Below, piece after piece: positions 24,863 through 46,641 of a DNA stretch of 64,000 bases. The stretch spans positions 192,001 to 256,000 of IMG/VR virus record IMGVR_UViG_3300013426_000014. One strand, 5' to 3'. Position numbers and translations under genes: made by a program. Position 1 is the first letter of the stretch, and every line of letters starts with the position of its first letter. This DNA is from a virus (lineage: Duplodnaviria; Caudoviricetes). Under the pieces are notes generated by a model, which worked only from the letters and a program-made list of their open reading frames with translations, was not told the DNA's origin and made no database searches.

Positions 24863-24874
24863 CAGAGAGTTGAT

Positions 24875-25512: not shown

Positions 25513-25609
25513 TAATTTTTTGAAAATATTTTTCTGTTACGGAAAAAACTCTTATATTCGCATTGTCATTCTTGATGACATATTGTTTAACCTTTTAATT
25601 TACAAAGTT

Positions 25610-26919: not shown

Positions 26920-26952
26920 AAATCAGCAACATCAAAATAATTACATAAAAAT

Positions 26953-27066
26953 ATGGGATGTATCAATTACGGGACAGCTCCGATTGAGGTCGAGAAGCAG
27001 GAACAGGTGAAGTCTGATACCGAAAACAAAGAGCATCAGAATAACGACGCGGCGGAAGAATCTTAG
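26953..27066 (+). CDS. 37-aa acidic peptide
   Basis: MGCINYGTAPIEVEKQEQ...; followed by a terminator. Confidence 0.5.
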   Translation: MGCINYGTAPIEVEKQEQVKSDTENKEHQNNDAAEES

Positions 27067-27190
27067 TTCGGCGCCGGAAGTGAATGATTCAGCGGATCCG
27101 TTTTTTACAGGCGGATCCGCGTTTTTTATTATAAAAATTTCCATATGTGAAAATAAAGCGTTATATTTGTGTTGTTAATTGAATTGGATT

Positions 27191-28690
27191 ATGGTAGAGA
27201 CAACACATGTAAAAACAAATATCGTTATCGGTATGGGATTCGGTGACGAGGGAAAAGGCAGAGTCACCGCATGGCTCGCCGATAAAATGGCGCGGACAAC
27301 GTCGGCGCCGTACAGAGACAAGGCGGCGTGTGTCGTCAGGTTTTCCGGCGGGCAGCAGGCGGGACATACCGTCGTGTCGAAACTTGACGGGATGATACCG
27401 TACACGTTCGAGTCAGACAAGTACAGTCATCAAATCCGTCATGTGTTCTCGACCCTCGGTTCCGGGACGCTTTCGGACTTTAATACGTATGTCTCGAAAT
27501 ACTGCGTGTTCGATCCGCAATGCGCTGTGAACGAGTTCCGTGCCATCGGGAATGAGATTGAGAACGAGCTGGTCGGAGTCCCGGTCAAGGGTTTTGATAT
27601 GATCATGCCAGATGACGCCGCTCATGACATGTGCGGAAAATATTGGATGTATCTTCCGAAATGCGTCATCGACCCCCGCGTCCCGTTGACCACACCGTAT
27701 GAGGTGTACGCAAACCAACATTCGGGTGACACCATTTCGGACGGCACGTGCGGGATGGGCGTGTGGGCGACGCGCGTCCGTGAGACGGCGGGTATCTCGA
27801 TCACCGCCGGCGATATGCGGTATCCCGTCGTCTTACGGACCAAACTGAAATCACTCGCCGGCTGGTACCGCAAATCCGGCGTCTTGCCGGCAGATATCGA
27901 TCTCGAGCTCGACAGATGGCTTTCCGCCGTCGATTTGATCATCAGGGACAGCAGACATTTTTCAATCGGTCCGCTTCCCGCATGTTCGGACGGATTGATA
28001 TTCGAAGGGTCACAGGGACTGTTGCTTGACCAGACGCATGGTTTCGCGCCGAACACGACGCCGTCCGATACCGGACTGTCCAACCTCACCGCGTTCGATA
28101 ACGATCTTGGTTTCGGTAAACGTCCGATTAACATGCTCAACGACATATTCTTACGAAACAACGGCGAAGACATGCGCGACATTGTGTTCTCTTCTGACAT
28201 ATATCTCGTCACCCGCGCGTATCAGACGCGGCACGGCGCCGGTTTCATGACGAACGAGACGCTGCCGCACAATATCGCGGATGATCCGGACGAGACAAAT
28301 GTGATGAACGAGTGGCAGAAAGATTTCAGAAAATCAATTCTTGACGTCGATCTGCTCAATTACGCGCTCGACCGCCACATGATATGCGAGACGGTGAACG
28401 GCACGAAGTCGAGACTTCATCTCGTTGTGACATGTGTCGATCATGTGCGTGACGCGTTGTGCTTCACTGAGAACGGGAAGATGCGGCAGTTTTCTGACAC
28501 AGACGAGTTCATCGCGGAAATCGGATCGGCGCTGTTTGACCACAGGACGATCACCAGTGAGGTAAAGCTGCATTATAGCGATTCGCCGTCCGGCCAGATA
28601 AAGGATGCGATGTCGAAACAGGAATATATGCGCCGTAACTACGTGAGATATGCGAGCACATATGATTCGAATTGCGTCGCGATAGGTTAA
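27191..28690 (+). CDS. purA: Adenylosuccinate synthetase-like protein
   Basis: GMGFGDEGKG, RFSGGQQAGHT, GTCGMG, FEGSQGLLLD, RAYQTRHGAG. Confidence 0.85.
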   Translation: MVETTHVKTNIVIGMGFGDEGKGRVTAWLADKMARTTSAPYRDKAACVVRFSGGQQAGHTVVSKLDGMIPYTFESDKYSHQIRHVFSTLGSGTLSDFNTYVSKYCVFDPQCAVNEFRAIGNEIENELVGVPVKGFDMIMPDDAAHDMCGKYWMYLPKCVIDPRVPLTTPYEVYANQHSGDTISDGTCGMGVWATRVRETAGISITAGDMRYPVVLRTKLKSLAGWYRKSGVLPADIDLELDRWLSAVDLIIRDSRHFSIGPLPACSDGLIFEGSQGLLLDQTHGFAPNTTPSDTGLSNLTAFDNDLGFGKRPINMLNDIFLRNNGEDMRDIVFSSDIYLVTRAYQTRHGAGFMTNETLPHNIADDPDETNVMNEWQKDFRKSILDVDLLNYALDRHMICETVNGTKSRLHLVVTCVDHVRDALCFTENGKMRQFSDTDEFIAEIGSALFDHRTITSEVKLHYSDSPSGQIKDAMSKQEYMRRNYVRYASTYDSNCVAIG

Positions 28691-28715
28691 ACAATCAAAA
28701 TAAAATCATAGGGTC

Positions 28716-29351
28716 ATGGAGATATTGACAGATTTTGATTATACATTCGAGAGCGGTGACAGACTGTTCTTTACTTCAGACACGCATTTCGGGCATGAAC
28801 GGATAATACAATACTGCAATCGTCCGTTCAGGGACGCGGTTGAAATGAACGAGGCGCTGATCCGGAACTGGAACGCCGTCGTGCCGTCGGACGGAATTGT
28901 GTTTCATCTTGGCGACTTCGCGATGGGGATGGATCAGGACAGAATCGCCGGGATCATATCACGGCTCAACGGGACGGTGTATCTTGTTGCCGGGAATCAT
29001 GACAGGCATTCACTTTCCCCATCGGTGCAGGACATGTTCAAGGATGTCATATATCAGACATTGATTAAGGTCGGCAGGAAAAAGCTGTTGCTCTCGCATT
29101 TTCCGCTGCTGTGCTACACGGGTCAGGACAAGGGAGTCGACGATACAGTCATCCAGCTGTACGGGCATGTTCACTCTGGCCCGTCGTCAGACGGCTCTGA
29201 TTCTGAACGGGTCAGGATGTGCTGTTTCCCGGGGCAGTATGACGTCGGCGTCGACAATAATAGTTACGCGCCGGTGTCTTACGCGGATGTTATCGGCAAA
29301 GTCATCCCGGCGCTGGAGAAACATGACAGACATAAAAGAAAGGATTTATAA
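28716..29351 (+). CDS. Metallophosphoesterase
   Basis: FTSDTHFGH, LGD, GNHD, GHVH. Confidence 0.9.
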   Translation: MEILTDFDYTFESGDRLFFTSDTHFGHERIIQYCNRPFRDAVEMNEALIRNWNAVVPSDGIVFHLGDFAMGMDQDRIAGIISRLNGTVYLVAGNHDRHSLSPSVQDMFKDVIYQTLIKVGRKKLLLSHFPLLCYTGQDKGVDDTVIQLYGHVHSGPSSDGSDSERVRMCCFPGQYDVGVDNNSYAPVSYADVIGKVIPALEKHDRHKRKDL

Positions 29352-29669
29352 ATGGAGAATAAGGAAAGAAAAATCATCCGGTACGAAGTGACATGGCCGG
29401 CAGGGATGAATCCGTCATACAGGATGACGTTCCCACCGGATCAGTTCAAGGACAGGCTCGCCGCCGGTTTTGTTGTCGATTTTCAGCGGACGCTTAACTC
29501 GATGCGGAAAGGCGGGAAGACTGTCACGATCAATCTCAGTGACTGTGATGTTTACCGGGTTGAACGCACAGTGACAGTGACTAAATCAAAGGTCGACATC
29601 CCCAATATGGAGGAAAGGTTTATTGACAGGGACATCAGAGACAACGACGACACATTGCTGACAGATTAA
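29352..29669 (+). CDS. Hypothetical protein
   Basis: 105-aa ORF. Confidence 0.65.
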   Translation: MENKERKIIRYEVTWPAGMNPSYRMTFPPDQFKDRLAAGFVVDFQRTLNSMRKGGKTVTINLSDCDVYRVERTVTVTKSKVDIPNMEERFIDRDIRDNDDTLLTD

Positions 29670-29686
29670 TTCAATTCAAAATTACA

Positions 29687-30139
29687 ATGGAAGAGATTCA
29701 TAATGAAATCAAAGACGCGAGACCGGTGAAGCAGGTCATCGTGTTCAGGAAGGATTTGCTCAAGGGGCAGGACGCGATAAGGAAAGGGAAGTTCGCCGGT
29801 CAGGTCGCGCACGCGTCGACGGCCGCGCTGCTGTCGTGTTTCCGTAAAAGGGAGGCCGGCGGCATGTGCTGTTATGACGTCGAGTTCAAGAAAGGAACGT
29901 ATCTTGACACATGGCTGAACGGTATATTCACGAAGGTTGTTGTATCTGTGCCGGACGACGACACGTTGAGGGACCTGTACAATCAGATCCAGATGGACGC
30001 ACCGGAGATTCCTGTGGCGCTTATAACGGATTGCGGTCGGACGGAGTTTCACGACATGCCGACGAATACCTGTATCGGGATTGGCCCGTATTACGCGGAT
30101 GAAATCGACAAGTTCACCGCTGGTCTGCCGTTGTTGTAA
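29687..30139 (+). CDS. pth2: Peptidyl-tRNA hydrolase, PTH2 family
   Basis: KQVIVFRKDL...KGKFAGQVAHA...KVVV...DCGRTEF...TCIGIGP...LPLL. Confidence 0.9.
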   Translation: MEEIHNEIKDARPVKQVIVFRKDLLKGQDAIRKGKFAGQVAHASTAALLSCFRKREAGGMCCYDVEFKKGTYLDTWLNGIFTKVVVSVPDDDTLRDLYNQIQMDAPEIPVALITDCGRTEFHDMPTNTCIGIGPYYADEIDKFTAGLPLL

Positions 30140-30255
30140 TATAGGATTCGTTTATTTGACCCGTGACGAACGTCTGGACAAAAGATGCAGTATTTATCGG
30201 TTTTATATGAATAATCGTCCAGGGGACGATATATAATATATAGAATTGATATTAA

Positions 30256-30343
30256 GGAAAGTTACCCAAGTCGGTGAAGGGGACGGTTTGCTAAACCGTT
30301 AGGTCGCGTCAAGCGGCGCGGGAGTTCGAGCCTCCCACTTTCC
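30256..30343 (+). tRNA. tRNA-Ser(GCT)
   Basis: ACGGT-TTGCTAA-ACCGT, long variable arm. Confidence 0.9.
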
Positions 30344-30352
30344 GCGCATTAT

Positions 30353-30424
30353 GTTCCTGTGGCGCAATGGAAGCGCATTTCGGTCCTAACGAAAGGGTTG
30401 CGTGTTCGAGTCACGCCAGGAATA
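30353..30424 (+). tRNA. tRNA-Arg(CCT)
   Basis: TTTCG-GTCCTAA-CGAAA. Confidence 0.85.
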
Positions 30425-30664
30425 CGGATCATCCCATGTCCTTCTTCGGTGCAAGGACCTTGCCAGCGGGAACGGCCTTGTAAATCGCGGTTAAAGCGTG
30501 CGCGTTTTGGATCTCGCTGTATTGAGCTTCGGGTAGGCTAGACCGGATATAATACATAAACCGGCGAATACGCGCGGCGTGACGGCGGGTGGATATAATC
30601 ACCCGCGTACGTGGAAAGACCGCGATGCAGCGGGATGATTTTTTTGATTATAATTTTAATAGAT

Positions 30665-31057
30665 ATGGTTGTATTGAAATCTATTTTGTTTGTGATCGGA
30701 GCAATTATTGCTCTGATTGCGATTGCCGGGACAGTGATGATGTTGTTTCACGTGCTATCGATGTGTGCGCATGACAAAGATTGTGATAATCTTGCGGCGG
30801 CAAATGATGTCGACATACCAGAATCGGCGGAGGAATACAGGATCGGGACGGAAGAGCCGTATGATGTTATCAATCCGGTGCTGGTAAACAAAACAGTCGG
30901 TAATGTCGTTACGAATCCGAATGATGACGGTCAGGATTCCGACGGCAATACGATGACAGTGTCGCCTGATGATAGCACAACAACAGTGGAGCCGGAGCCG
31001 CCTGTGAAAAAGAAAACCATGCGGAAGAAAAAGACAAGTGTCAATCCGGTCGAATAG
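30665..31057 (+). CDS. Membrane-anchored hypothetical protein
   Basis: N-terminal TM, acidic middle, basic tail. Confidence 0.7.
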   Translation: MVVLKSILFVIGAIIALIAIAGTVMMLFHVLSMCAHDKDCDNLAAANDVDIPESAEEYRIGTEEPYDVINPVLVNKTVGNVVTNPNDDGQDSDGNTMTVSPDDSTTTVEPEPPVKKKTMRKKKTSVNPVE

Positions 31058-31162
31058 CCGGTTTCACAATGCCATTTTGATCCGGGACCGTGTGTTCCGG
31101 ATTTTTATTAATATGCGGTCGGATAGATATTTTCATATAATATACAGCAGACTTTTAATTTT

Positions 31163-31621
31163 ATGTTCAGGACAGAGAAAGGCGGCAGGGTAGAGGATCC
31201 GGCCGCATATGTCAAGGAATACATCAAATCCCGTCGGGGAACACCGGTACAGGTCATAATAGGCAGTGATTCACAGAATTACGGTCCTGTAACTTCATAT
31301 GCTACCGTCATTGTGCTGTATGTTCCGGGTCATGGCGGTCATGTGCTGTATGAGCGCGACCGCAAGAAAAGAGAGATTTCCAACGCGGCTCGGCTGCTGA
31401 ACGAGGTGTCGAGAAGCATCACGACGGCGGATATGCTGAAGGCGGGCGGCGTCGGAAAGGTTGACTACATCGATATCGATATCAATCCGGATGACAGGTA
31501 CAAGTCGAACGGCGTGTACGCCGCGGCGGTCGGTATGGTCCGCGGCATGGGGTATGAGTGTAGGTGTAAGACGCTGGGCGCCGCGGCGACGTATTGCGCC
31601 GACCGGGCAGCGAGACGTTAA
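31163..31621 (+). CDS. RNase H-like YkuK (DUF458) protein
   Basis: IIGSDSQ, LLNEV, IDIDIN, YCAD. Confidence 0.8.
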   Translation: MFRTEKGGRVEDPAAYVKEYIKSRRGTPVQVIIGSDSQNYGPVTSYATVIVLYVPGHGGHVLYERDRKKREISNAARLLNEVSRSITTADMLKAGGVGKVDYIDIDINPDDRYKSNGVYAAAVGMVRGMGYECRCKTLGAAATYCADRAARR

Positions 31622-31635
31622 AATCGGATGACCGA

Positions 31636-32007
31636 ATGAACAGCAAACTATCTTCTGAATCTTTTGTTGTTTCCGGCCCGTCGTTTCGTTCGGGCGCGCG
31701 GCCGTCGTGGTGCCGAGTGAAATACCCGTTTAATTCGGCTCCGTATCTCGACAATCATTTCTTGCGGATCGATACGGACGGATCGTTTCCTGATACAAAT
31801 TGTCTGAAATGGCCGCAGTCGTTGCGTTTCGCCGCCAGCAGGTTTCATTATAACATGCGGACGGAGCATCATGCGCGGCTGACGGAAGACGTCCGGCTGT
31901 ATCAGAGCACATGCATGAACTGTGTCTATTATGTCAGTAAATTCAATTATTCGCCGAAAGCGGTGATGCATCGCGCGAATCATCTGCTGAACGAGCTTGA
32001 ATTTTAG
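31636..32007 (+). CDS. PxWC-family Cys-rich protein
   Basis: RPSWC...CMNC...NY. Confidence 0.7.
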   Translation: MNSKLSSESFVVSGPSFRSGARPSWCRVKYPFNSAPYLDNHFLRIDTDGSFPDTNCLKWPQSLRFAASRFHYNMRTEHHARLTEDVRLYQSTCMNCVYYVSKFNYSPKAVMHRANHLLNELEF

Positions 32008-32145
32008 GCATAAATTCATCGGGGCGTAAAAATATTTCAGGAATCGTTTTCACGGTTCCTGATTTTTTGTTATATTCGTGTTATAATTGATGAATCATAT
32101 GAAAGAAAGACATGACATACTATATACAAAAGAGCGCCAATACCG

Positions 32146-32538
32146 GTGGTGCAGACGCACGATGTTGGGATGCCGTCATGGTGTCCGTTTCAAGGTCAGT
32201 GTATGATGCTAAGAACGATATTCGGTGGTCCACAAAGACATATACCGCTTTTGACCGAAAACGGAGCGGCCGCGGCCGTTGACCTGAAAGTAAAGGATGT
32301 TCGGCCGGCGGGAAAGAATTTCTGCATGTTTTGCGACGATGGAATACTATTTCACAAATCATTGAATTCATGCAGGGACACGCGGAAGTATAATGTCGCG
32401 AACATGACTGTCATCGGTATGCAAAAACTGACTGGCGGACGTCCCGGTGTATATGATTTCGCGGCGGTAAGGTATACCGCATATATCGGCCATGGCGAGA
32501 ATCCAAAAGCGCTGTCACACAAAAGGAACGTTCATTGA
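32146..32538 (+). CDS. PxWC-family protein
   Basis: MPSWC...CMFC...KYN; start uncertain. Confidence 0.65.
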   Translation: MVQTHDVGMPSWCPFQGQCMMLRTIFGGPQRHIPLLTENGAAAAVDLKVKDVRPAGKNFCMFCDDGILFHKSLNSCRDTRKYNVANMTVIGMQKLTGGRPGVYDFAAVRYTAYIGHGENPKALSHKRNVH

Positions 32539-32999
32539 TATATGAAAATGCGTGGTCAATGAAGTCAAGAATGAAGTCAGGAAAAGATAGTCAATACAAG
32601 GAAAGCATGTTTATGATGAATAAAGGAAAAACAAGTAAGAATGGTTATGATATAAAATCATTGCCGACTTATATGTGGTGCGATCTCGCCGCCCGGGGAC
32701 TTATGTGCTGGAAACGTCTGAACGGCGAACGTAACGCGAAAGGACTGTATATGACGCAATGCATTCGGTGTAATCATATACGGAAGTCATCTGAACAGTA
32801 TGACCCGCGGATGGCGAGGTTGACATCCGGTTGGAATATGATGTATAATATTCGGCATTTCTGTATACAAGGCATGTCTGGCAGGTACACGGTACCGGAT
32901 ATCAATGTGTATGGATACAGTTCGCCGCATCCGGGATGGACGAGACTTGTTTCGGTCCCGCCGCGACATGGATGGCATAAGGGCAACATATCAGATTGA
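32535..32999 (+). CDS. PxWC-family protein
   Basis: YMWC...CIRC...GWHKGN. Confidence 0.65.
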   Translation: MIYENAWSMKSRMKSGKDSQYKESMFMMNKGKTSKNGYDIKSLPTYMWCDLAARGLMCWKRLNGERNAKGLYMTQCIRCNHIRKSSEQYDPRMARLTSGWNMMYNIRHFCIQGMSGRYTVPDINVYGYSSPHPGWTRLVSVPPRHGWHKGNISD

Positions 33000-33019
33000 A
33001 TAACAATTGAAATATATAA

Positions 33020-33343
33020 ATGAACAACCAAGGTAAACCGACATTTCCGATGTCGGTGAATCAGCCGAAATACTGCAGATTCGGCAAGTACTGCTGGGAC
33101 AAATCTAAGCAGTACAAATGTCTTGTTCCCACCGCGCGCTGCAGGTCGATGTGGGTGTCGTCATATGACGCGTGCATGAAATATTGCGGTCGGGAATTGG
33201 CCATCATTTTGCACGGCAGGCTGGATTATGACAATGTCGAGACGTCATTGCTCACCATGTCGCATTATGCCGAAATGGTTTATAATCCGTATCAGGTAAT
33301 CGGCAAATGCAAGATCCTGATGAAAAAGGATGTTCACACATAA
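33020..33343 (+). CDS. PxWC-family-like protein
   Basis: PKYC...CMKYC. Confidence 0.6.
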   Translation: MNNQGKPTFPMSVNQPKYCRFGKYCWDKSKQYKCLVPTARCRSMWVSSYDACMKYCGRELAIILHGRLDYDNVETSLLTMSHYAEMVYNPYQVIGKCKILMKKDVHT

Positions 33344-33824
33344 ACATATTATAAAGGTTAAAATAAAAGCGTATAAAGATATGGGAATTGTTGATTCCGG
33401 CTCACGGTTAAAAGTGAAAGGCAGGTCATCCGCGCCGACCAGATTCAGAAAAGTGCGAAACATATTGAACAATTTATTCTATATGCCTGCGTGGTGTGCC
33501 AAACCAGTGGAGAAGATTTATCCGTTCGTGATGTGTGCGCAAATGCAGAATGACAACGCGTTCGGCAGATGCATTGCGTTCGATGATGACATGTCGGGAC
33601 CCCGCTGCCGGCCGACGAGATATACCGAATGCATGTCGACCAGATGTATGTATGTGCGCGGGCTGTATCACGGTGTTGCGATGTCCCGTTATATCAGAAC
33701 ATTTATGAAAAATATATATAGACCAGACCTGAACACGGCGTATATAAAATTTAATCAAAGGTTGTTTGATTTATATGAGCTGCGTTCCGCGCAATGGCAT
33801 AAAGGAAACGGTGAAAATGAATAA
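33330..33824 (+). CDS. PxWC-family protein
   Basis: MPAWC...RPTRYTEC...WHKGN. Confidence 0.7.
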   Translation: MFTHKHIIKVKIKAYKDMGIVDSGSRLKVKGRSSAPTRFRKVRNILNNLFYMPAWCAKPVEKIYPFVMCAQMQNDNAFGRCIAFDDDMSGPRCRPTRYTECMSTRCMYVRGLYHGVAMSRYIRTFMKNIYRPDLNTAYIKFNQRLFDLYELRSAQWHKGNGENE

Positions 33825-34314
33825 TCCTATGTTCGACATGCATGAAATCACGTTCAAACCGCCGAAAGGACGAATCCGGAAGGGAATGCGTATCGTCCAG
33901 AGGTCACGGCATAATAATGATCCGATTTTCATGCCAGAATGGTGCGCGTACGCGTCCCACGGGATTTACAACAGGTTCACGCAATGCACACAGATAACAC
34001 ATGACACCATGTACGCGCTCGGCGGTGGATCTGAACATTCTTTCACGCGTCCGACGAGATACACACAATGCGTTTTTCAACGTATGAATGGAATTTTATA
34101 TACATGTCTGAATGTGAAAGGCGGCGTATATAAAGGTTACACGACCGCGAAAATCGTGAAAGACTGTATGACAAAGATTATGATAAACGAAGAAGATGAA
34201 ACTGGGATGAACGGAGTTATCTTGATGACAAATTATGCGCGATCATTAAATCATACCTTGGAATATTATAACTTATCCGGCGCGTCATGGAAAGCCGGAA
34301 CAAATAATGAATAG
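33817..34314 (+). CDS. PxWC-family protein
   Basis: MPEWC...RPTRYTQC...GGVYKG. Confidence 0.7.
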   Translation: MNNPMFDMHEITFKPPKGRIRKGMRIVQRSRHNNDPIFMPEWCAYASHGIYNRFTQCTQITHDTMYALGGGSEHSFTRPTRYTQCVFQRMNGILYTCLNVKGGVYKGYTTAKIVKDCMTKIMINEEDETGMNGVILMTNYARSLNHTLEYYNLSGASWKAGTNNE

Positions 34315-36090: not shown

Positions 36091-37215
36091 ATGATGAACT
36101 GATATAATTCTTATAATATTCCATTGTCGGAAGGTTTTGACATGTCGAACATGTCGGATTCTGACTATACCGACACATTCGCCGACGCGGACAACAACGC
36201 TGTGCGTGACGCTGCGGTGAACGCATTTATCGCGGCCTGTGTCGAAGCGAATGACGAATCGGTCAAACTACAGTCCGGTAAATATTGTCTCGCTCAGATA
36301 CAATTTTGTTCAAACGCAGAAAAATGAAAGGGATTTGAATATCAAGGTATATTAAGATATCCGTCAGATGATAGGATCGTGAATATCGATGAGGACGGTT
36401 TACGTGCGATCACCAGGGCGGAATATGATACTGACGGTATTCAGATTATCATTGATCCGGAAAAAGTCGGGCAATTGCCTGGACGGATTTACAGTCTGAG
36501 CTTACGCATCGGATCCGGAATTAAATTTCCTATAGAGTGATCATCGATTTCATTATCCGGCCGTGATGTAGGCAGGAAGTACGCGCTTAAATTGTCTGTG
36601 ATTCCGTCTTCCGACAGAAAATTGTCATGTATGCCGAAACGGGTTGTCGGTAATTTCATACTTTTGGCGTCAGAAGGTCCGGTCGGACTGTATAGACATC
36701 CGATGAAATCATACGATGGATGCCCGGAATATGTTGCAGGTAATTGCACAATCGAATATGGGGCATGATGTAAGGATCCATTCCCACGTGATTTTACAGG
36801 ATGTCCAAAATATGTCGGCGGTAATTTTACGGTATTGCTGAATCCATATAATGGCGCGGACTCGTTTCATAAAACGTTCGAGTCCGGCACTGGACTGCCT
36901 ATTGAAATCGGAGGTCATGCAGATCTTCAATACATACGGGATCTTGTTAAAAGGTCAAAGAATGGCGGGCTGATATCTTTATGTCCAGATGGGATGCGAA
37001 GGAGTTGAAAGTCATGCACATTGTTCATACCGTATAATAATTATTATGAAGTCCGTACAAACGGAAAATACAAGGGCGTTCCTATTGACGATAAGGTCGC
37101 GGGTAAAAAGCTTAACATAGATGACGGCAAAATCAGTATATTGCTTGATGACATCAATATATCAGATAAAGCATGGATTGTTTATTTCACTCCCGGATTA
37201 TCAAGAAAGCGTTAA
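36091..37215 (+). CDS. EDFD-family repeat protein, 374 aa, TGA=Trp (36100, 36325, 36538, 36766, 37006)
   Basis: LSEGFDMSNMSDSDYTDTFAD; GCPEYVAGN, GCPKYVGGNF, GLPIEIGG; no TAA/TAG until 37213. Confidence 0.85.
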
Positions 37216-37225
37216 TAAATTGATT

Positions 37226-38602
37226 ATGAAACTATATAACATTAAATCTGGATTGAATTTATCAAATCAAAGGATAACTGAGGATTTTGATCTGTCCAGA
37301 GAAGATGACGCAGACTGAACCGACGCCATGTCGGACTCCGATGATGAAGCGATGGAGTTTTATACGTTTGTCACGACATTAAGATCTGCTGTACAACTAT
37401 ATGTACAGAACGAGGATGGTAAAGCTGTATATAAAAAAGGAACGGATCCGTCGCTCGATATATTGTTCAAAACATCTGTGACTGGAACAAACGCGGATGG
37501 ATATGACGTGCGGTTGTTTTCTTGTCCGGCTGCTAATCAACTACTTTCGAGTATACATGGCAGAGCCGCTGCCGAAAATATGTATAATACCCACAGTGAA
37601 CATACTTATATAGTAAGAGCACGGCAGGTGCTGATCTGTCTGGATCTTTCCGCCCTGCCGGCGAATTTTCCGGTATGACGTCTTCCTCGACAGAAGGTTG
37701 ATGGTTTCAATGTCATGCATATGTTATATGTAATACCGTCTGCAGACGGCTCTTTACGTGGGATGCCGGAATTTATTGCCGGTAATGTATATATAGGCAA
37801 AGAGGAAGAAGAGAAAGAGGAAGAAGTTGGACCATTGGAAAAAGAGATATTATGACCAATGGATGCATCAGTGCGTCCAGTTCGGTCGATGACAGGATCG
37901 CCGCAAATAGTTGAAGGCAATTTCCGGGCGGTTATTATATGTCCTGATTCCAGTATGGTATCGTCTGATATTCTGAACGGATCACCGAAATGGGTTACTG
38001 GAATTTTTAGAATTATAGGGTTAAACAGGATTGATTGACCGGCATATAACTCATTTCTGTGAGATTCGGACGGTGCCATCCGGCCGGCGTTCACAGATGG
38101 TGTAAGCCGGATGTACGGTCAAATTTACATAGACATACTGCATCCGGGTGTTGATTCATCAGCAATAGATTTATCAACAATAAAATCAGATGAGCGAACA
38201 AAGTGAACAGATTATATAGAGTTTGAACAATACAGTTATCGTTGTAGACTAACACATATAATGTTTCCTGATACTATTGTATTAGGTTGCATATGACATA
38301 TTAAAATATATGGAGATCCAGATGATACGGCACGATGATTGAAGAAAATCAATATTGATACACGAATTAACGAAGGTTTCGACATGTCGGATATGTCAGA
38401 TATCGACTATACTGAAACGTTCGCGGACGCGGATCATGAGGCGCAGATGGTCAATAACTTTCTTAACGCGTTGTCGCACGATATCATTGAACTCGCACCG
38501 TTTTCAATGATATATCACAATCCGGAGTACCGACAGTTTACAGCGAAATCTACCGGAAGGATCAAATCACGTGCCGCCGCGAAAAAGTCGTCAGTATGAT
38601 AG
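37226..38602 (+). CDS. EDFD-family protein with 8 sense TGAs (37316, 37676, 37853, 38036, 38060, 38204, 38294, 38336), fused in frame to the next EDFD unit
   Basis: SFL*DSDGAIRPAFTDG aligns with SFLWDGKGNIIPAFTDG (TGG at 18894); frame ends TGA-TAG at 38597-38602. Confidence 0.8.
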
Positions 38603-39231
38603 GGCATGCTCGCTACATAGACGGCGAGGTCATATATACCATGTCACCGTTACATAATTGAGAAGTGACGGTCGATTTGTCTCGGAACTGCTTGCGTGAT
38701 TTTGTTTTGAACGGCGGCAGATGACGGCGGGAAGCTCCCGATCCGGATCCCGAAGATCAATTTTACCACATGCATGTCATACCCGGACTGGCCGGTGATT
38801 TGACAGGATGCCCGGCTTATACAGACGCGTATTTCACTGTTGATGATAACGATGGTCGTCTGACATCGCTGTACGGCGCGCCGGAATGAGCGGACCGTGA
38901 TTTTGAGTACATATATCAAGGTGATGAGTGACTGGGTAAACATAATTACACCTACATGATGGGTCCTTTGCAGTCGCTTGAATGATCACCTGAATATGTT
39001 GGCGGCACATTCTGGATACAGGGAGCGAATCTGACAGATCTGACTGGCATGCCGGCGAAAGTTACCGGACAGGTGAGAATCAAAGATTCTATGATGCCGG
39101 AAATTTACGCGGGATTAAACTGTGGTGGTGACAGCGTGCCGCCGGAACTGCTGCCTACCGGGCGATGCGCGATAACAGTAAGGAATCCGTGCGACATGGG
39201 AGCACCGTTCAGGATATGGTCGTCAATTTAA
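38339..39231 (+). pseudogene. EDFD-family unit with a -1 frameshift near 38500 and 5 sense TGAs downstream
   Basis: INEGFDMSDMSDIDYTETFAD; the repeats (DLTGCP, LTSLYGAPE, DLTGMPAKVTG) lie in the 39049 frame. Confidence 0.65.
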
Positions 39232-39276
39232 TAGGATAAAACAATTTAATAGGATAAAACAAATAATAAAGACTAT

Positions 39277-40245
39277 ATGTTGTCATTAAACGAAGATTTT
39301 GACTTTACCGATATGTCGGATACCGATTACACAAATACATTCGCCGATATCGATGAATCCGCGGAAAAAGAAAAGGCTTTACAGGATGCGTTCTGAACAG
39401 ATTATGTGCCATGCTACCGTGATTATCCGTCTGTGACAGTGATATGTAAGAGCAAAAATGATATTCCGGAATTATCCGTCACAATAGTGGACAATCCGTA
39501 TTGAAATCCTGCTATTATTCTGGATTTGGCGCGTGGCGGATTTGCCGGTTTCATTAAAAAATATGGTGATTATATTATTCGCGGCGGCAAATCCGGATCT
39601 ATAGCAGGTACGGTATCACGTCTATTATTACAATTCATCCCGACATCAGACTTTAACCTTATCGGAGCACCGGTAGAGACAATCGGGTTGAATGTTTGTA
39701 TCGGCAAGAATGACCGTACTACTGGCCCGGCTCTCCAAAAATATGATCCCCGCGTCGCAATTCGTTCATATCAGCTGAACTCATTAGACGGATGCCCGCG
39801 CCGGATTACCCGCGGAAATTTCAATATCACCAATTGTCCAAATCTAAATTCGTTAAAAGGATCGCCGGAACACATCGATTATAATATGTCTGTTCGTAAA
39901 TGTGGAGGGGAACGCATAAAAAATTTAGACGGTATGCCAGAATATATCGGCGGAACATTTTATTCAATTAAATCTATACAGCCGGTCGGGCATGATCCAG
40001 ACACAGGTGAATGACGGCGGCTGCTGACAACTGGAACAGTGCAAGTCGGTGGTATCACCATATTGAATACCATACCGGCGGAGCCGAGCTACGACATCAC
40101 ATCTAATGACGCAAAAAATCCGAAAAGCAAAGCAGGTAAGGTATACAAAATGGTAACAGCTGGAATCACCAGTCATACCGGCGCGGATATTGTCAAAGGA
40201 TCTGTTGAAGTTGACACATCAATTCCGATCAATGAGATAAGATAA
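39277..40245 (+). CDS. EDFD-family repeat protein, 322 aa, TGA=Trp (39394, 39502, 40012)
   Basis: LNEDFDFTDMSDTDYTNTFAD; SLDGCP, SLKGSP, NLDGMPEYIGG. Confidence 0.85.
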
Positions 40246-40333: not shown

Positions 40334-41185
40334 TTAATTTTTTAGATATGTAAACGGCTCAACCTTTCCTGTTTTTGTGTCATTCCACATATGTGTGACG
40401 AGGATCCAGTCACCGGCGGACCATCTCACTCCGGTCCTGCCTTTTCGTCCAAACCACCGCCGCCATACTTTGTACATGACATCATCGTCCTGCTTGACAT
40501 CTTGTGACTTATGCAGGATATTGAGCTCTTTTCCCGGTGATGATTTCCATCCGTCATTGTCTACTTTGTTTCTGTCTATAAATGTCGCGTGCGCGTGTTT
40601 TCCGTCAACAAGATTTATGATCCTGCATAAAAGTTTTCCCCATAATGTATTGACAGCATCTGTCATTTTTTCAGCCAATGGGCTGGATATTCTGTAGTAC
40701 CACCAGTGGTGGAATAACCAGCGCAACAGACTTTCTGACTTTCCGTCCCATACCTCATAATAGTATTTTGCAAGGGCAAATGACGGATTTCTTTTTATCA
40801 GCCAGACATGATTCTTGAACGACCGCGTGATAAAAAACAAATCATCTTTCCGTTTATCGGAATCCCAGTCTGACGTGAAGCCGGTGAACGCTTTCATCGT
40901 CTCGAGCACCGGTGATCTGTTCGGCTTGAACTTATCAATCAAGTCGTCATGCTGTCCGAACAGCTCTATCATATACGCGGGATCACCGGATTCTGTTTTC
41001 GTGTCGGTGATCCACATACCGAATGTCCACCTTTTTATCCCGCGGATTTTGAATATCGTCACAGCGTCCTCGCCCAGGTCGAATATGAAATACCCGTTTC
41101 CGGTACTGACATTCACCGGCGTCAACCCGTCATCCGTCAGTGACATGAATATTGTATCACGGATTTCTTTTTTTGTCGTTTTCAT
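40334..41185 (-). CDS. Hypothetical Trp-rich protein (all TGG)
   Basis: Start MKTTKK downstream of a host-type promoter. Confidence 0.75.
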   Translation of the reverse strand: MKTTKKEIRDTIFMSLTDDGLTPVNVSTGNGYFIFDLGEDAVTIFKIRGIKRWTFGMWITDTKTESGDPAYMIELFGQHDDLIDKFKPNRSPVLETMKAFTGFTSDWDSDKRKDDLFFITRSFKNHVWLIKRNPSFALAKYYYEVWDGKSESLLRWLFHHWWYYRISSPLAEKMTDAVNTLWGKLLCRIINLVDGKHAHATFIDRNKVDNDGWKSSPGKELNILHKSQDVKQDDDVMYKVWRRWFGRKGRTGVRWSAGDWILVTHMWNDTKTGKVEPFTYLKN

Positions 41186-41358
41186 GATATCGTATTTTAA
41201 TATGCAAATATAATAAAAAATATTAAAATAAAAAACTTTAACAGAAAAACAGATAACGTGATATGACAAAAAATGAACTATATAATGTTAGATAACGTCA
41301 TCAAATATAAAACCCACTGATATATATCAGTGGGTTTTTTAGAAGGAATGCTATATGA

Positions 41359-42021
41359 TTAACCCATCAAATTGTCCTCGATGGAGTCCATATATTCATT
41401 ATACTGATCATATGGCAGCGGTGACACATTCGACATTTGATCTACCAAATCAAAAAGCACGATGTTAAGGTTTTTGAAATCGTTCAATGATTCAAAATCC
41501 GAATTGTCCAGTCTGATGTTATGATTTTTTGCGGTAAGGCCATACCATATCGACATCGCCAAATCATCGAAATCTGATGATGAACCGACCGGATACATAC
41601 TGTCAACGCCCGCGGCGACAATAAGATCATACGGCACGCGGATCTTATCTCTGACACCATGACCTTGACGACCTGTATAATTCGGGAAGTCAGCCGCGAT
41701 AACAAATTGACGTGAATTGGTACAGCCACTGGCGGCAATCAATGAGTTCAGTAGGTTGACACCAATCAGATTGATACCAGCGTATTCGAGATCATTCTCA
41801 TAATTCGCGGCATAATCACTATCTGGATCTGCATCACTGTCAAAATTGTAATCACATGCTCGCTCCGCGTCAACTTTCGCGTTTTGGAACGCGTCACGCA
41901 TCAAATCATCAAGTACTGACTGACGAATGCCACAAGCGGAACGACTGCCTGCCCTACCGACAGGTTGTTCCGACTCGTTAAGGAAGTACGTCCTTCCATT
42001 ATATCTTACCAATCTTTTCAT
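41359..42021 (-). CDS. Hypothetical protein, possibly virion-internal
   Basis: GATAAATA upstream; N-terminal FLNES. Confidence 0.6.
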   Translation of the reverse strand: MKRLVRYNGRTYFLNESEQPVGRAGSRSACGIRQSVLDDLMRDAFQNAKVDAERACDYNFDSDADPDSDYAANYENDLEYAGINLIGVNLLNSLIAASGCTNSRQFVIAADFPNYTGRQGHGVRDKIRVPYDLIVAAGVDSMYPVGSSSDFDDLAMSIWYGLTAKNHNIRLDNSDFESLNDFKNLNIVLFDLVDQMSNVSPLPYDQYNEYMDSIEDNLMG

Positions 42022-42072
42022 TTGTAAAGATCTTTTTTTTCACTTGATATATTATTTATCAGTGTGATATGA

Positions 42073-42630
42073 CTAAAAAAGCGGAACCGACACATCCGCG
42101 GCGCGGCAAATTTTTTCCAGTCCATTTTCAGATCGTCTGAATTCTTTGAAAGATGACAACTGTCCCCATTCGATTCGTACGCCATTGCCATTAAATCTGC
42201 CGTTTATACTATTGGGTTTATATGTAACATGTGTCTGCGTTCCATCTCCATTGGTGAATGTATCAGACACCGCGTTATTGCCGTCTGGATGACGTTTCTT
42301 ATATTGCCGACGCCAATTTTCTATAACTGATTTAGGGATGACATACACACCATTGACATATCCGGACTTATTGATTTCCCTCAAAACAAGATCACTGTCA
42401 CCGGCGAATAGATCTGCTTTGCCCGCGGGCGGAAAAATACTTTCCTCCGGTATTAGAATGGCGAGCGGGTGAACCTCACTGTTGCCGTACGGGATATGGT
42501 TCCTACCTGATGCAGAAGGAACAAGATCATCGACGATTTTTTTCACGCCATTGTTATTATACGGATTATATACCGTGCCATTGATAATTGTTTTATGTTC
42601 CACTTTTTGTGTCGCCGTAATTGTTGTCAT
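42073..42630 (-). CDS. Hypothetical protein
   Basis: 185-aa ORF. Confidence 0.7.
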   Translation of the reverse strand: MTTITATQKVEHKTIINGTVYNPYNNNGVKKIVDDLVPSASGRNHIPYGNSEVHPLAILIPEESIFPPAGKADLFAGDSDLVLREINKSGYVNGVYVIPKSVIENWRRQYKKRHPDGNNAVSDTFTNGDGTQTHVTYKPNSINGRFNGNGVRIEWGQLSSFKEFRRSENGLEKICRAADVSVPLF

Positions 42631-42772
42631 AATTTTATGAGATTAAAAGATAAATAACATGTCTAATCAAAAATCAGAATGCCGTGAAATCACGGCGTCC
42701 GAAAACGGTCGTTTTTCATTTCTGTCTGTACTGGAACGCCCGTTTCGGACCAGGGGGATATAACAATCCCCC

Positions 42773-43282
42773 TTATTCTGTTATATCAGACGTCACGCTA
42801 TTATTTGTAATCGCACCCCCGTTTTCAAGATTTGCTGTATCTATATCCGCGGCTGGGCCGATTTTCACGATGTCATTCACCTGCCGGATAATATCGGATA
42901 AAAGATACGCGTAACATTCTTCTGACGCGGGTTCCAGTCTCGCTCCAATCCGGCGCATTATCCTCGCGACGGCATGAAATGCCTCATGCGCAATATTGAT
43001 ATGATCATTTGGATCAGCAACCCATAATACCATATCCTGTTCTGATATGGAAGAGTCAAGAAAACCCACACATCTACCGGAATCATGCCGCCCGGCGTTT
43101 CCCCGGATCATCTCGTCTACCATGCTGTCCGCGATATCACGGTCGACTTCGTTTTCAGTCTCACGCATAAAACGCATAATAGATCTGACCGTTTCCCGCT
43201 CGACATCACCGTTCGAAGGCACGCCCGCTATGAACAATATTGAAGTCCTGTAACTGGACAGGCAGATTACCCCGCTTTTCAT
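42773..43282 (-). CDS. HExxH metallopeptidase-like protein
   Basis: IAHEAFH...EECYAYL. Confidence 0.65.
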   Translation of the reverse strand: MKSGVICLSSYRTSILFIAGVPSNGDVERETVRSIMRFMRETENEVDRDIADSMVDEMIRGNAGRHDSGRCVGFLDSSISEQDMVLWVADPNDHINIAHEAFHAVARIMRRIGARLEPASEECYAYLLSDIIRQVNDIVKIGPAADIDTANLENGGAITNNSVTSDITE

Positions 43283-43491
43283 AATATATGCGATGTTTTT
43301 GATTCATCTTTGACGGATTCATCCTCTGTGGTTTCATCATCTATCGCCTGGATTCGCATCGCTTGTACAAGAAGTACAACAAAAAACGCGACGATGATAA
43401 TCGTCATGAAATCAATAATAATAAAAATCCAGTTCATATCCAAAAAATTATAATATTCTATAAATAAATTCTTTGACAAGACGACGTCCAT
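43279..43491 (-). CDS. Small membrane protein
   Basis: TM segment; ATGA overlap with the next gene. Confidence 0.6.
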   Translation of the reverse strand: MDVVLSKNLFIEYYNFLDMNWIFIIIDFMTIIIVAFFVVLLVQAMRIQAIDDETTEDESVKDESKTSHIL

Positions 43492-43806
43492 CCACGAATA
43501 TTGTTCTCACCAGTAAAACTTATATAATCAAAAATAGACAATTACATACATCCATACATTGAATATTAAATACATATATCCAAATGATGCATGCTGTCTT
43601 AAATGGTGTACCCGCTTCCGACACGGATGTAATCTGCCCTGTGAACTATATATCCTCACATCGGCCATCCGCTATATTGTATCCGGGGTCTGCTTTATAG
43701 CGCTGTTAAGACTTACGCTCCGGAAATCCGTCATCTTGTCAAAGAACTGTATTGCAAATATAGATATAATTTTTGAAATAGAAAACTGTTTTCTTATATT
43801 TTTGTG

Positions 43807-44715
43807 TTATTCTTTAATCCATTTGATGAACACGTTCTTTGCCTTACGAAATACAATACATATACGGCATATAATCGAATCCGAATCACCGATTTTACAT
43901 CCTCCCTTTACAGTCTCTGCACTTACCACCTCATGATTGCTTTTTGATGTCAGCTCGCCGTTCCGTTCAAACACGCGGTTAAGCCGCCTATTGACTGTGT
44001 CGTATAGCATCCTTTCTATTGTAATGCCTGTACGGAAAAAGAGATGATCCGCGGTCCCGTATGGATCCGTCAGTTTCTTCTCGTTCATCCGCATCATCGC
44101 GTCGTCGAATCTCAAAGCGAAAAGACTGTTCTTACTGTCTTCGTCTTCCGACACGCCGCATAATACAGCGGTCACATCATATGACCAATTTTTTATGTCA
44201 TATATTTTATTGTCAACGCCGACCATACATCCAATCATATCACCGATTTTACTGAACATATGACGAACAGGATTTCTTTTGAACATAAGTGTCATGCACA
44301 TAACATCCGTACCGCGTACCGGCCGCAATAACGATACAGTCGAAAGAACTGGATATAATCCGTCATTTAATTTTTTCGCCTGCCGCAAAAGTTTGTCGAA
44401 ATCAATATGCAGCAGAAAATCAGCGGTGATGACGCTTCCGTCAATATAATCCGGATCATCCACACGGACATCGGCAGATTTCAATCTTGTTATCACGCCC
44501 GGCTGGAATAAAGACAGCAACACTGCCATTTTTACCTGTTCCGATGCTTTACCGTATACAGAATGATCATCTCTCACTGCATCATGCAAAAAATCAAAAA
44601 TCTCACGTATTGTCTTTGTCTGCATCGTACATCGTTTCACGGGTGGCTTGTTATTCACCGATGTGCCACGCTGATTTTCCATGTTCTGACGTCGTTTTGT
44701 ATTAGGTGATGTCAT
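43807..44715 (-). CDS. Hypothetical protein
   Basis: 302-aa ORF. Confidence 0.7.
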   Translation of the reverse strand: MTSPNTKRRQNMENQRGTSVNNKPPVKRCTMQTKTIREIFDFLHDAVRDDHSVYGKASEQVKMAVLLSLFQPGVITRLKSADVRVDDPDYIDGSVITADFLLHIDFDKLLRQAKKLNDGLYPVLSTVSLLRPVRGTDVMCMTLMFKRNPVRHMFSKIGDMIGCMVGVDNKIYDIKNWSYDVTAVLCGVSEDEDSKNSLFALRFDDAMMRMNEKKLTDPYGTADHLFFRTGITIERMLYDTVNRRLNRVFERNGELTSKSNHEVVSAETVKGGCKIGDSDSIICRICIVFRKAKNVFIKWIKE

Positions 44716-44834
44716 AATAAAATCTTGTAAATCAACTAAAAATTATATATGTGGTATTCGTTAATTTTTATGATTTATAATAAAAAAGACGGAATATGTT
44801 ATCCCGTCTTTTTAATAAAAGCGATTACCGTCGA

Positions 44835-45158
44835 TTACGCTTCCGCTTCGATTTCCCGCATGATTATCGCACGGATATCCCGCATCTCCGGCGGCGTGAT
44901 TCTGCGGATAATCTTGCCGGATTTATAAACCAGCGCGGCCGGGATGTTCCTTATGCCGCACACCGCCGTGATCTCGTCCGCGCCATTTGAATCGACATCG
45001 ATTTTAATGACGGATACCTTCCCAGCAATGAATGGATCCGCCGCGAGCTTGTCGATCTCTGGTCCCGCGACCTTACATGGTCCGCACCATCCCGCGTAAA
45101 AATCGACAAGAGTCATACGATCGGTTGACACCGCGTCATTGAATTCGGTGATGTTCAT
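44835..45158 (-). CDS. trxA: Thioredoxin
   Basis: VDFYAGWCGPCK. Confidence 0.92.
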   Translation of the reverse strand: MNITEFNDAVSTDRMTLVDFYAGWCGPCKVAGPEIDKLAADPFIAGKVSVIKIDVDSNGADEITAVCGIRNIPAALVYKSGKIIRRITPPEMRDIRAIIMREIEAEA

Positions 45159-45160
45159 CG

Positions 45161-45742
45161 TTACTGCTCGTCTTTTTCAGAATCCGTGTCGATGACCTCG
45201 TAAGGAATGTCACCGAAATCATCCTGCTCCTCGTCATCCACACCGATGTACTTTTTGAAATCAAACTTGTCACCGGTAAGTTTTTCGAGATACGCGCCGT
45301 TCGCCTTGATGACATTGATCGTCCTTTCCGCGAAAATACCGATAAGTTTGGTGTAAACAGATGCGATTTCTGTCACAGCGGCGTCGACGATACACAATGT
45401 GTCGGCATATGCCTTATTCTCCGCTTTCGTCAACGCGATCTTCTTGCCGATCTCCTCGTTGAACTCGTCATCGGGCGAGCACACGGCACGGCCGATGACC
45501 TTCAGATTCTTGCCGTCGTAAAGCGAGCGGCTGTACACACGCATCAGCGATCCGGTGTACGGATGCACATGGGCGGACGGTTTCTGCCATTGTGTCGCTG
45601 GATCGACACCAGTGTTGTCCTCGAGCGACGGGATGGATATCTTGTACTGCAGCACACACGTCACCATGCGTTTCTCTTTGTTGACTGAATAAATTGGCTC
45701 GCCCTGATAGACGACTTTGATTTTCGTTGAGCTTAAATCCAT
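45161..45742 (-). CDS. Hypothetical protein
   Basis: GRAVCSPDDEFNEEIGKKIA motif; start MDLSS. Confidence 0.7.
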   Translation of the reverse strand: MDLSSTKIKVVYQGEPIYSVNKEKRMVTCVLQYKISIPSLEDNTGVDPATQWQKPSAHVHPYTGSLMRVYSRSLYDGKNLKVIGRAVCSPDDEFNEEIGKKIALTKAENKAYADTLCIVDAAVTEIASVYTKLIGIFAERTINVIKANGAYLEKLTGDKFDFKKYIGVDDEEQDDFGDIPYEVIDTDSEKDEQ

Positions 45743-45768
45743 AATGATATAAGATTTGATTGTTTGAC

Positions 45769-46641
45769 TTATTGATTGTCCGATTCCTTGCAGTCGATGA
45801 CATACCCGGCGGCGTATCTGAACAGTTTCCTGTTCATGTCGAGATCTTTCGCGACGGCGGTGATTGCCCTGACCTTGCGCGGCTTCTTCGCCGGATCCGC
45901 CGACGCCTTGAACCCGCCGCGGGTCATCTTCTCCTGAAGGATATTGTATACCGTCCACAGGTCGTCACCGTGATCTTCTTGCCTCACCGGCTCGATAATT
46001 TCTTCAGCGACGTCGAACGGCAACGTGAACGGAACTTCCGGCTTAATGCCGCGGCGGATTTTGAACGCAGCAGAAGCAAAGTCAATCTTCTGCTTTTTCG
46101 TCAGCATGACGCGTTTCATTCCGTTGATGATCTCTATCTGCTTCGGCAGCTGCGCGATAACGCCGGCGGTCAGGTCACGAAGTTCCTGGAATGTGTATGC
46201 TACATGACGGATTGACAGATCCGCGAACTGGTCGGACGCGATGACCAGACCGTTGCTGCACACCACCCTGTACAGGCCGACCATGAACTTGAACGAATGC
46301 ATCCCGTCATGCGAGTTGGTCAGGATGATGCGCGGCCAGCAGTCGACACCGCCATCGAGATTGCGGACGACCACGTCCGGATTCTGGAATGCGACCATAT
46401 GGAACGAATACTTCCTGTCGCCACGCTGACGCTGCTGCTTCGCGTCGACCGGATACCACCCGAGCTTCGCCATATCGTCGATGACGGTCTTCGTGTTCGC
46501 CGGAACATACAGCGTCGACACGTCGGGGTTAGACGGCTCCGTCATGAAGGCGCATGGGCATTTCTTTCTGAGTTCGTTTTCTGTAAGAAACTCAGTGGCG
46601 AGACCATTGTCTCTGAAATTCATCATAATGTCTTCTTTCAT
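45769..46641 (-). CDS. DUF932/DUF945-family protein
   Basis: LTNSHDG...GLYRVVCSNGLV...LWTVYN. Confidence 0.85.
   Translation of the reverse strand: MKEDIMMNFRDNGLATEFLTENELRKKCPCAFMTEPSNPDVSTLYVPANTKTVIDDMAKLGWYPVDAKQQRQRGDRKYSFHMVAFQNPDVVVRNLDGGVDCWPRIILTNSHDGMHSFKFMVGLYRVVCSNGLVIASDQFADLSIRHVAYTFQELRDLTAGVIAQLPKQIEIINGMKRVMLTKKQKIDFASAAFKIRRGIKPEVPFTLPFDVAEEIIEPVRQEDHGDDLWTVYNILQEKMTRGGFKASADPAKKPRKVRAITAVAKDLDMNRKLFRYAAGYVIDCKESDNQ

Follow-up and report, generated by a model that had tools for sequence, protein, structure and literature searches.

TGA as a probable tryptophan codon in a tandem cluster of tagged repeat genes from a 269-kb phage record

Whether the interrupted frames at positions 36091-40245 of a 64,000-nucleotide window of phage DNA are genes, and if so in which code they are read, is the question raised by this locus; the window covers bases 192001-256000 of the 269,322-bp virus record IMGVR_UViG_3300013426_000014, whose completeness is rated 87%. 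Under the standard bacterial code (table 11) the longest open reading frame (ORF) within the segment has 162 amino acids, and with TGA taken as a sense codon plus-strand ORFs of 374, 493, 211 and 322 amino acids appear. A preliminary description of this DNA had proposed a tandem cluster of genes readable only with TGA as tryptophan, and all its coordinates and TGA counts for the segment were verified on recount. The encoded proteins belong to one family, in which a short acidic N-terminal tag precedes a variable body; in gene 1 the tag is followed by degenerate LxGxPxxVxGxF repeats. Very probably the record derives from a T4-like jumbo phage of 269 kb in which TGA is a Trp sense codon in one class of genes, and with similar confidence the frames of the cluster are taken as intact translated genes, namely gene 1, a two-module gene 2-3 interrupted by a 1-nucleotide deletion, and gene 4. 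Their layout is as follows.

36091..37215, plus strand: gene 1, 374 amino acids, with 5 TGA and 1 TGG, ending in TAA
36100, 36325, 36538, 36766 and 37006, plus strand: in-frame TGA codons of gene 1, the first being codon 4
37226..38602, plus strand: gene 2 (module 2), running stop-free into the N-terminal tag of module 3, with 9 TGA and a TAG at 38600-38602
38596..39231, plus strand: remainder of module 3 in the -1 frame, 211 amino acids from an ATG, with 5 TGA and 2 TGG
39277..40245, plus strand: gene 4, 322 amino acids, with 3 TGA and 0 TGG, ending in TAA

Over the 1,364 codons of the cluster the in-frame tally was 22 TGA, 4 TGG and not a single TAA or TAG. TAA and TAG together amount to 3.0% per codon in the other two frames of the same strand, which gives a probability of about 5e-19 for finding none in frame. 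The argument of the preliminary description that random decay would give mostly TAA and TAG was overstated, as TGA is itself the commonest stop triplet off frame (96 against 83 for TAA plus TAG); despite this, the complete in-frame lack of TAA and TAG remains decisive against frames produced by random decay. Trp codons (TGA plus TGG) make up 1.9% of the total, a normal share, and the cluster genes terminate in TAA or TAG. The codons at 38060, 38887, 37316 and 38983 are TGA in the peptide contexts previously named, and 18894 is TGG in SFLWDG. Coding density under tables 4 and 11, a comparison suggested earlier, favoured recoding: the share of the genome lying in ORFs of at least 200 amino acids rises from 57% under table 11 to 88% when TGA is translated, as compared with 61% when TAG and 71% when TAA is translated.

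The amino acid assigned to TGA was examined in an alignment of all family modules in which TGA was masked as X, so that Trp would not be attracted to these positions. Opposite the masked codons Trp accounted for 8.2% of residues against a background of 0.68%, a 12-fold enrichment in line with what had been predicted for homologs at the TGA columns, and Gly for 10.3% against 6.7%. Within the well-aligned gene-2 subfamily all 5 paralogs have Trp opposite the TGA at 38060 (column W279 of gene 2). Codons at three conserved Trp columns were read in 10 DNA-backed paralogs and homologs, which come from this phage and from three groups of contigs of other samples (L015/L016, L017 and L018/L019), that is, from at least four independent metagenomes. 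The ARWRL column showed TGA five times and TGG four times, the FLWD column each of the two five times, and the KWL column TGA twice, TGG three times and TAT twice; no Gly codon (GGN) was present at these columns in any of the 10 sequences. The independent contigs L017, L018 and L019 bear TGA at the same columns and their table-11 gene calls end exactly there, and the table-11 fragments of these proteins in a public protein collection terminate exactly before the Trp columns. The alternation shows TGA behaving, to judge from the alignments, as a synonym of TGG in these genes.

A direct comparison was possible with L015, a 29.5-kb contig that is syntenic with the window between 27.3 and 48.9 kb at 70-85% nucleotide identity and contains orthologs of genes 1, 2 and 3 without gene 4 (the gene 1 ortholog, at L015 8865-9983, shares 77% protein identity). 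Eighteen window TGA codons from genes 1-3 were paired with L015 codons. Eight of them are TGA in both phages, four are TGG in L015 (37006, 37316, 37676 and 38659), three are GGA (38036, 38294 and 38983), the one at 36325 is TCA, that at 38204 is AAA and that at 38336 is TAT. The reverse change was observed at 39217, a TGG in the window and TGA in L015, which brings the TGA/TGG swaps between the two to five. The GGA paired with 38983 encodes the conserved Gly of the repeat, in agreement with the earlier guess of a GGA to TGA mutation at this position. The Trp/Gly exchanges at 38036, 38294 and 38983 are more numerous than expected for so radical a change.

Selection on the cluster was estimated by the Nei-Gojobori method with code 4 for the window against L015, the synonymous divergence (dS) being about 0.6-0.9. 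The ratio of nonsynonymous to synonymous divergence (dN/dS) was 0.15 for gene 1 (95% bootstrap 0.11-0.23), 0.44 for gene 2, 0.22 for the tag part of module 3 and 0.21 (0.12-0.32) for its remainder; flanking genes gave 0.05-0.13, and shifted-frame controls on the same alignments 0.8-1.5. These ratios show the genes to be under apparent purifying selection past many TGA codons, and evolution beyond the first TGA, the other point on which the earlier proposal could have failed, was not neutral. Gene 4 keeps its 3 TGAs unchanged in each of 8 near-identical relatives (L020-L027), where substitutions and indels that preserve the frame are the only differences. The assignment of TGA to Trp is thus borne out by the 12-fold enrichment, the TGA/TGG alternation at three columns, the five ortholog swaps and the dN/dS of 0.15-0.44.

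The preliminary description had treated 37226-38338 as a gene of its own with 8 TGAs. The count holds, the eighth TGA (38336-38338) being the last codon of that range, and no TAA or TAG follows it; the separate gene does not, as modules 2 and 3 form a single continuous 662-amino-acid ORF in L015 and L016. Codon 38336 is TAT (Tyr) in both contigs and is aligned with the conserved Trp of the KWL column in the paralogs, so that the TGA at this position cannot be regarded as a gene end. ORFs of several modules are normal in the family, for instance three modules at genome positions 256999-260022. The frameshift previously noted in the unit starting at 38339 is present, 1 nucleotide being missing relative to L015 and L016.

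38581..38586, plus strand: AAAAAG run, directly after which 1 nucleotide is absent as compared with L015 and L016

The first part of module 3 therefore reads in one frame until TGA-TAG at 38597-38602, and because of the loss after AAAAAG the rest lies in the -1 frame; where L015 continues in frame as KK-LVR-MIGHARY, the window reads KK-SSV-TGA-TAG. The TAG at 38600-38602 ends the frame 37226..38602 only because of this shift, and the new stop shares bases with the ATG behind it (ATGATAG). The 1-nucleotide deletion at 38586 is either a real mutation or an assembly error, and a scan of JGI metagenomes for the site gave no match. The sequence G-AAA-AAG (38580-38586) resembles a -1 slippery site of the dnaX type, and slippage by -1 at this point would bring back the whole of module 3. 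Programmed frameshifting at this heptamer was considered and is unlikely: the relatives are in frame there and the heptamer is imperfect.

A tRNA able to read TGA was sought in the whole 269-kb record with ARAGORN, introns being allowed, and a single tRNA(tca) was found. The window carries 33 tRNA genes.

14860..15225, plus strand: split tRNA(UCA) gene, with a 293-nucleotide insert (14893-15185) after the first anticodon base (34/35)
10836..10907, plus strand: phage tRNA-Trp(CCA), matching the UCA tRNA in the end of its acceptor stem and in the discriminator base

The joined exons of the tRNA(UCA), 73 nucleotides with their junction at 14892|15186, form a normal cloverleaf with G1-U72, C2-G71, C3-G70 and discriminator G73. 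According to the identity rules of bacterial tryptophanyl-tRNA synthetase (TrpRS), such an acceptor end fits Trp and not Gly or selenocysteine, and bacterial Gly tRNAs carry U73 and G1-C72. The insert is strongly structured (folding z = -5.2) and its last base is G; a TTGGAG stretch about 85 nucleotides in, behind a long hairpin, could pair with both exon ends. It is designated here as an insert of unconfirmed class. The cluster genes had been called clients of an intron-split suppressor: dependence on this tRNA stands as an inference from its being the sole tRNA(tca) with a Trp-like acceptor end, and the word intron found no support in an Rfam group I match. A DNA search with the tRNA(UCA) against 50,697 phage records gave no match, and exact-pattern scans of viral contigs revealed no intronless or intron-bearing copy.

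Use of TGA is genome-wide and not special to the cluster, which is its densest island. In a crude set of 208 genes the in-frame TGA:TGG ratio was 252:771, and 96 of them (about 46%) contain at least one TGA. TGA accounts for 22 of the 26 Trp codons of the cluster (22:4, 85%) versus 24% elsewhere (Fisher 2e-10), and the A-ending fraction of the Lys, Glu and Gln codons is likewise higher (0.68 vs 0.37). The blocks on both sides are free of TGA.

23931..34314, plus strand: left flank, 13 called genes with 22 TGG and 0 TGA (Fisher vs the cluster 5.7e-10)
40334..46641, minus strand: right flank, 6 genes with 24 TGG and 0 TGA (P ~1e-5; Fisher vs the cluster 1.7e-10)

The A-ending share of the same codons is 0.46 in the left flank and 0.58 in the right one, yet neither has a TGA; pure codon bias as the cause of the TGA excess was rejected on the grounds that flanks of similar A-ending bias lack TGA altogether. 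Fourteen of the 15 flanking ORFs end in TAA or TAG. TGA-free genes of the window match NrdD, exonuclease, phosphoesterase and adenylosuccinate-synthetase-like families (the last in the left flank), and TGA-rich genes elsewhere match terminase (a piece), endolysin, head-closure and peptidase families. Family matches thus show the classifiable TGA-rich genes to have predicted late functions and the classifiable TGA-free ones to have predicted functions in nucleotide metabolism. Such a division between early and late genes has been reported for recoded gut phages. By its coding alone the cluster would fall into the TGA-dependent, 'late' class. The gene upstream of gene 1 (35728-36084; L015:8369-8881) is TGA-free, rich in Cys and Trp, and ends 6 nucleotides before gene 1 in the same frame; at this junction TGA-free and TGA-rich genes may share one transcript.

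About 22 modules of the family are spread over the genome, among them a second array.

17571..20180, plus strand: three paralogous modules, including the closest paralog of gene 2 (18141-19181)

The tag follows the consensus E-[DG]-F-D-[FM]-S-D-M-S-D-x-D-Y-T-D-T-F-[AS]-D; it has about 20 residues, is acidic and N-terminal, and was modelled as disordered. The body behind it consists of a helix and a beta-rich variable part with a few degenerate LxGxPxxVxGxF solenoid repeats, and the AlphaFold model had a pLDDT of 74 and a pTM of 0.75. A profile of the gene-2 subfamily gave more than 1,000 protein matches, mostly through the repeat in its classic form LTSLEGAPxxVGGxFxC (e.g. P0020 and P0029), and distant repeat relatives match LRR_4 weakly. 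VIA-align returned weak solenoid matches only (Z 4-6), to beta-helix adhesins, leucine-rich-repeat receptors and tailspikes. No informative family was obtained from Pfam and PHROGs for ten neighbours and ten other family modules. When proteins were searched by indexed words, gene 2 had no match of near length, and with the tag alone the only match was a paralog from the same genome. The cluster DNA had no match in the 50,697 phage records, and a search of viral contigs for related loci with genes 1 and 4 found none.

The array differs between strains. Eight contigs of near-identical phages (L020-L027; 93-98% identity, genomes of ~263 kb) have a single gene at the cluster locus (4944-5933), and this gene is chimeric: its first ~58 bases correspond to gene 1 and the rest to gene 4, the switch falling within the tag-coding ATGTCGGAT. 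Coverage exceeds 1,400x in the ENA assemblies from which L021 and L023 come. The recombination partners in the window are the following.

36130..36195, plus strand: tag-coding sequence of gene 1, EGFDMSNMSDSDYTDTFADAD
39292..39354, plus strand: tag-coding sequence of gene 4

Window positions 36185-39285 are accordingly missing from these contigs, the two forms of the locus being separated by a 3.1-kb indel whose breakpoint falls in the repeat that encodes the tag. L015 contains an additional upstream member of the family (L015:7264-8346, 360 amino acids, 5 TGG and no TGA) that is not in this record, so that not every family member is TGA-dependent. The chimeric gene shows that, as read from the aligned contigs, modules of the array are acquired and lost from strain to strain through recombination within the repeat that encodes the tag, and the gene 1/gene 4 switch in ATGTCGGAT together with the module differences in L015 points to this repeat as a site at which cassettes are added and removed.

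Four other explanations of the TGA-interrupted frames have to be weighed against the reading of TGA as Trp in intact genes. A decaying pseudogene array of a multi-copy family, with the TGAs as nonsense mutations, would accommodate the frameshift of module 3, the replacement of a conserved Gly by one TGA, the fast evolution of gene 2 (dN/dS 0.44) and the gain and loss of modules in the family arrays. It is barely credible in view of the lack of TAA and TAG in 1,364 codons, the 85% share of TGA among Trp codons at a normal Trp total, the 8 of 18 TGAs conserved in L015 at a dS of about 0.6-0.9, dN/dS values far under those of the shifted-frame controls, and close relatives with in-frame indels only; when mixed stops, frameshifts and neutral evolution were looked for, the sole disruption was the frameshift at 38586. 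That TGA stands for Gly, as in code 25, or ambiguously for Trp and Gly, is a highly improbable proposal. The 3 of 18 window TGAs paired with GGA, including 38983 at the conserved Gly of the LxGxP repeat, speak for it, but a few such changes are to be expected with GGA only one base from TGA. Moreover, the three conserved columns alternate TGA with TGG (and TAT/TAC) and never with GGN, there are five TGA/TGG swaps between orthologs, and the tRNA(UCA) has G73 and G1-U72 like the phage tRNA-Trp, without the U73 and G1-C72 set of bacterial Gly tRNAs.

It is also very unlikely that the host itself uses code 4, with no need for a phage suppressor and no role of TGA in timing. From one gene class to another, the choice between TGA and TGG largely follows the A/G bias at third positions, as a fully neutral synonym would, and no 'code-change module' of release factor 1 (RF1) and TrpRS was found; however, long gene blocks with 19-29 Trp codons lack TGA despite, in places, many A-ending codons (P about 1e-2 to 1e-5), the genes that could be classified are of nucleotide metabolism in those blocks and of head, packaging and lysis among the TGA-rich ones, the phage has its own tRNA(UCA) beside the tRNA-Trp(CCA), and its GC content of 42-60% is unlike that of the code-4 cells generally known. 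Quite unlikely, finally, is a leaky stop giving mostly truncated products, with the TGA at 38336 ending gene 2 and occasional readthrough into module 3. A host release factor 2 (RF2) is presumably present, the gene boundary drawn earlier is a TGA directly before TTG, and in 18 of the 96 TGA-containing genes of the crude set the last TGA is at most 15 codons from the TAA or TAG, slightly above the rough expectation of ~10 for a uniform spread; early in infection, some of the TGAs close to the end of a gene may still be read as stops. Against a leaky stop, codon 38336 is Tyr (TAT) within one uninterrupted two-module ORF in L015 and L016 and is aligned with the conserved Trp of the KWL column, purifying selection is seen in every inter-TGA segment, and other loci of this genome have two- and three-module ORFs whose junctions contain no TGA.

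Several results weigh against intact, TGA-dependent late genes served by the split tRNA. Module 3 is frameshifted in this record, and 3 window TGAs are GGA in L015, where at 38983, the conserved Gly of the LxGxP repeat, a Trp would be radical. The TGA excess of the cluster partly tracks its A-ending preference (A-ending fraction of Lys, Glu and Gln codons 0.68 vs TGA fraction 0.85, Fisher p = 0.11). At a threshold as loose as E <= 10 the Rfam group I model still does not match the insert of the tRNA. As many as 9 TGAs in one gene would have to be won from the host RF2, and no match to RF1 or TrpRS (PF03462, PF00579) was found in the 269-kb record, which is 87% complete, so that the missing part could hold them. 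The T4-type late promoter motif TATAAATA does not occur in front of the cluster, nor is it enriched in the window (5 found vs 3.3 expected); as gene 1 directly follows a TGA-free gene, the designation 'late' comes from codon class alone. The four cluster proteins had no match in Pfam and PHROGs, and Foldseek against PDB and BFVD gave none at E <= 0.001. Splicing, charging and timing are all inferred.

On the main reading, the host would read TGA as stop; the tRNA(UCA), once its 293-nucleotide insert had been removed, would be charged with Trp and decode the TGAs of the cluster, and full-length products would appear only when this tRNA was active, i.e. late in infection. The acidic tag would serve as a shared address or docking peptide. 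In a tentative extension, about which we have considerably more doubt than confidence, synthesis of the family would be locked at translation until the split tRNA(UCA) is spliced, its members would form a strain-variable arsenal of tagged solenoid proteins (virion-delivered effectors or exchangeable host-binding modules), and recombination in the tag repeat would reshuffle the cassettes. If true, the splicing of one tRNA would be a timer for a whole class of fast-evolving genes.

Among cells, Mycoplasma and Spiroplasma use code 4, in which a tRNA-Trp(UCA) beside a CCA isoacceptor decodes UGA as Trp. The UCA and CCA pair is also present in this phage, which differs in being a virus of moderate GC content (42-60%), with TGA in only ~46% of its called genes and whole blocks that avoid it. 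Cyanobacterial and plastid tRNA-Leu(UAA) contain a group I intron in the anticodon loop, and the phage insert has in common with it the position between 34 and 35, the last base G, and the TTGGAG possibly pairing with both exon ends; it differs in the missing Rfam group I match (E <= 10), in a putative guide ~85 nucleotides in and in having a suppressor as host tRNA. The phage and giant-virus proteins with leucine-rich-repeat-like LTSLEGAPxxVGGxFxC repeats share the repeat matched by the gene-2 subfamily profile, whereas in the cluster the repeats are few and degenerate and have no Pfam LRR match, and the acidic tag is absent from P0020 and P0029.

Gut phages that recode TGA in their late genes and carry suppressor tRNAs have been described as the Jade, Sapphire and Agate clades (Borges et al., bioRxiv 10.1101/2021.08.26.457843). 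The phage studied here shares with those code 4 phages a large genome with TGA in frame where Trp is expected, recoding that is densest in genes for structure and lysis and falls into several modules along the genome, a standard code in the genes for DNA metabolism, a tRNA(UCA) of its own, and gene families that prefer TGA over TGG. The 'code-change module' of Jade phages (tRNA, TrpRS and RF1) was not found in this 269-kb record (87% complete); other differences are the 293-nucleotide insert that breaks the suppressor tRNA gene and the multi-copy tagged repeat family to which the most strongly recoded genes belong. The cluster is a further case of the published TGA-to-Trp recoding of late phage genes, a principle in print since 2021-2022, and the details added are the contrast between a TGA-rich island and the TGA-free genes next to it, the cassette family with its tag, and the insert within the suppressor tRNA gene.

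T-even internal proteins carry a conserved capsid-targeting sequence (PMC3012670). Like them, the tagged family has a short conserved N-terminal peptide on very diverse proteins, and its loci differ between related phages; the tag is longer (about 20 residues), acidic and of unrelated sequence. The resemblance is an analogy in how the family may work and not one of membership.

Standard-code gene callers shatter these genes; once the code is recognised, a family of about 22 modules is recovered. The cluster illustrates how sharply the genes of a phage can be split into a TGA-free and a TGA-dependent set, adjacent genes included, and it ties recoding to a family whose membership varies from strain to strain. 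With its conserved TGAs, TGA/TGG swaps and one Gly-to-TGA change, it is a clean natural test set for proteomics of recoding.

Some further observations concern the surroundings of the cluster. The flanking ORF at 32535-32999 (L015:4831-5301) is among the few there that end in TGA under table 11, its frame being open beyond (for 32 codons in L015), and the phages differ there. The 503-amino-acid gene at 27179-28690 matches the PHROG '2-aminooxy adenylosuccinate synthetase', which is PurZ-like, and the same gene is present in L015 (Pfam Adenylsucc_synt); it hints at a modified adenine pathway. A TGA-free gene at 16-1149, with a strong match to homing/HNH endonuclease PHROGs (E about 1e-98), opens a TGA-free block. 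Towards the end of the record (genome 255-269 kb, from window position 63376 onward; L008 and L009) the GC content is 59-69% as compared with about 45% elsewhere, possibly through horizontal transfer or a chimeric assembly, and the family modules of this region have the same acidic tag with 8 TGA vs 31 TGG.

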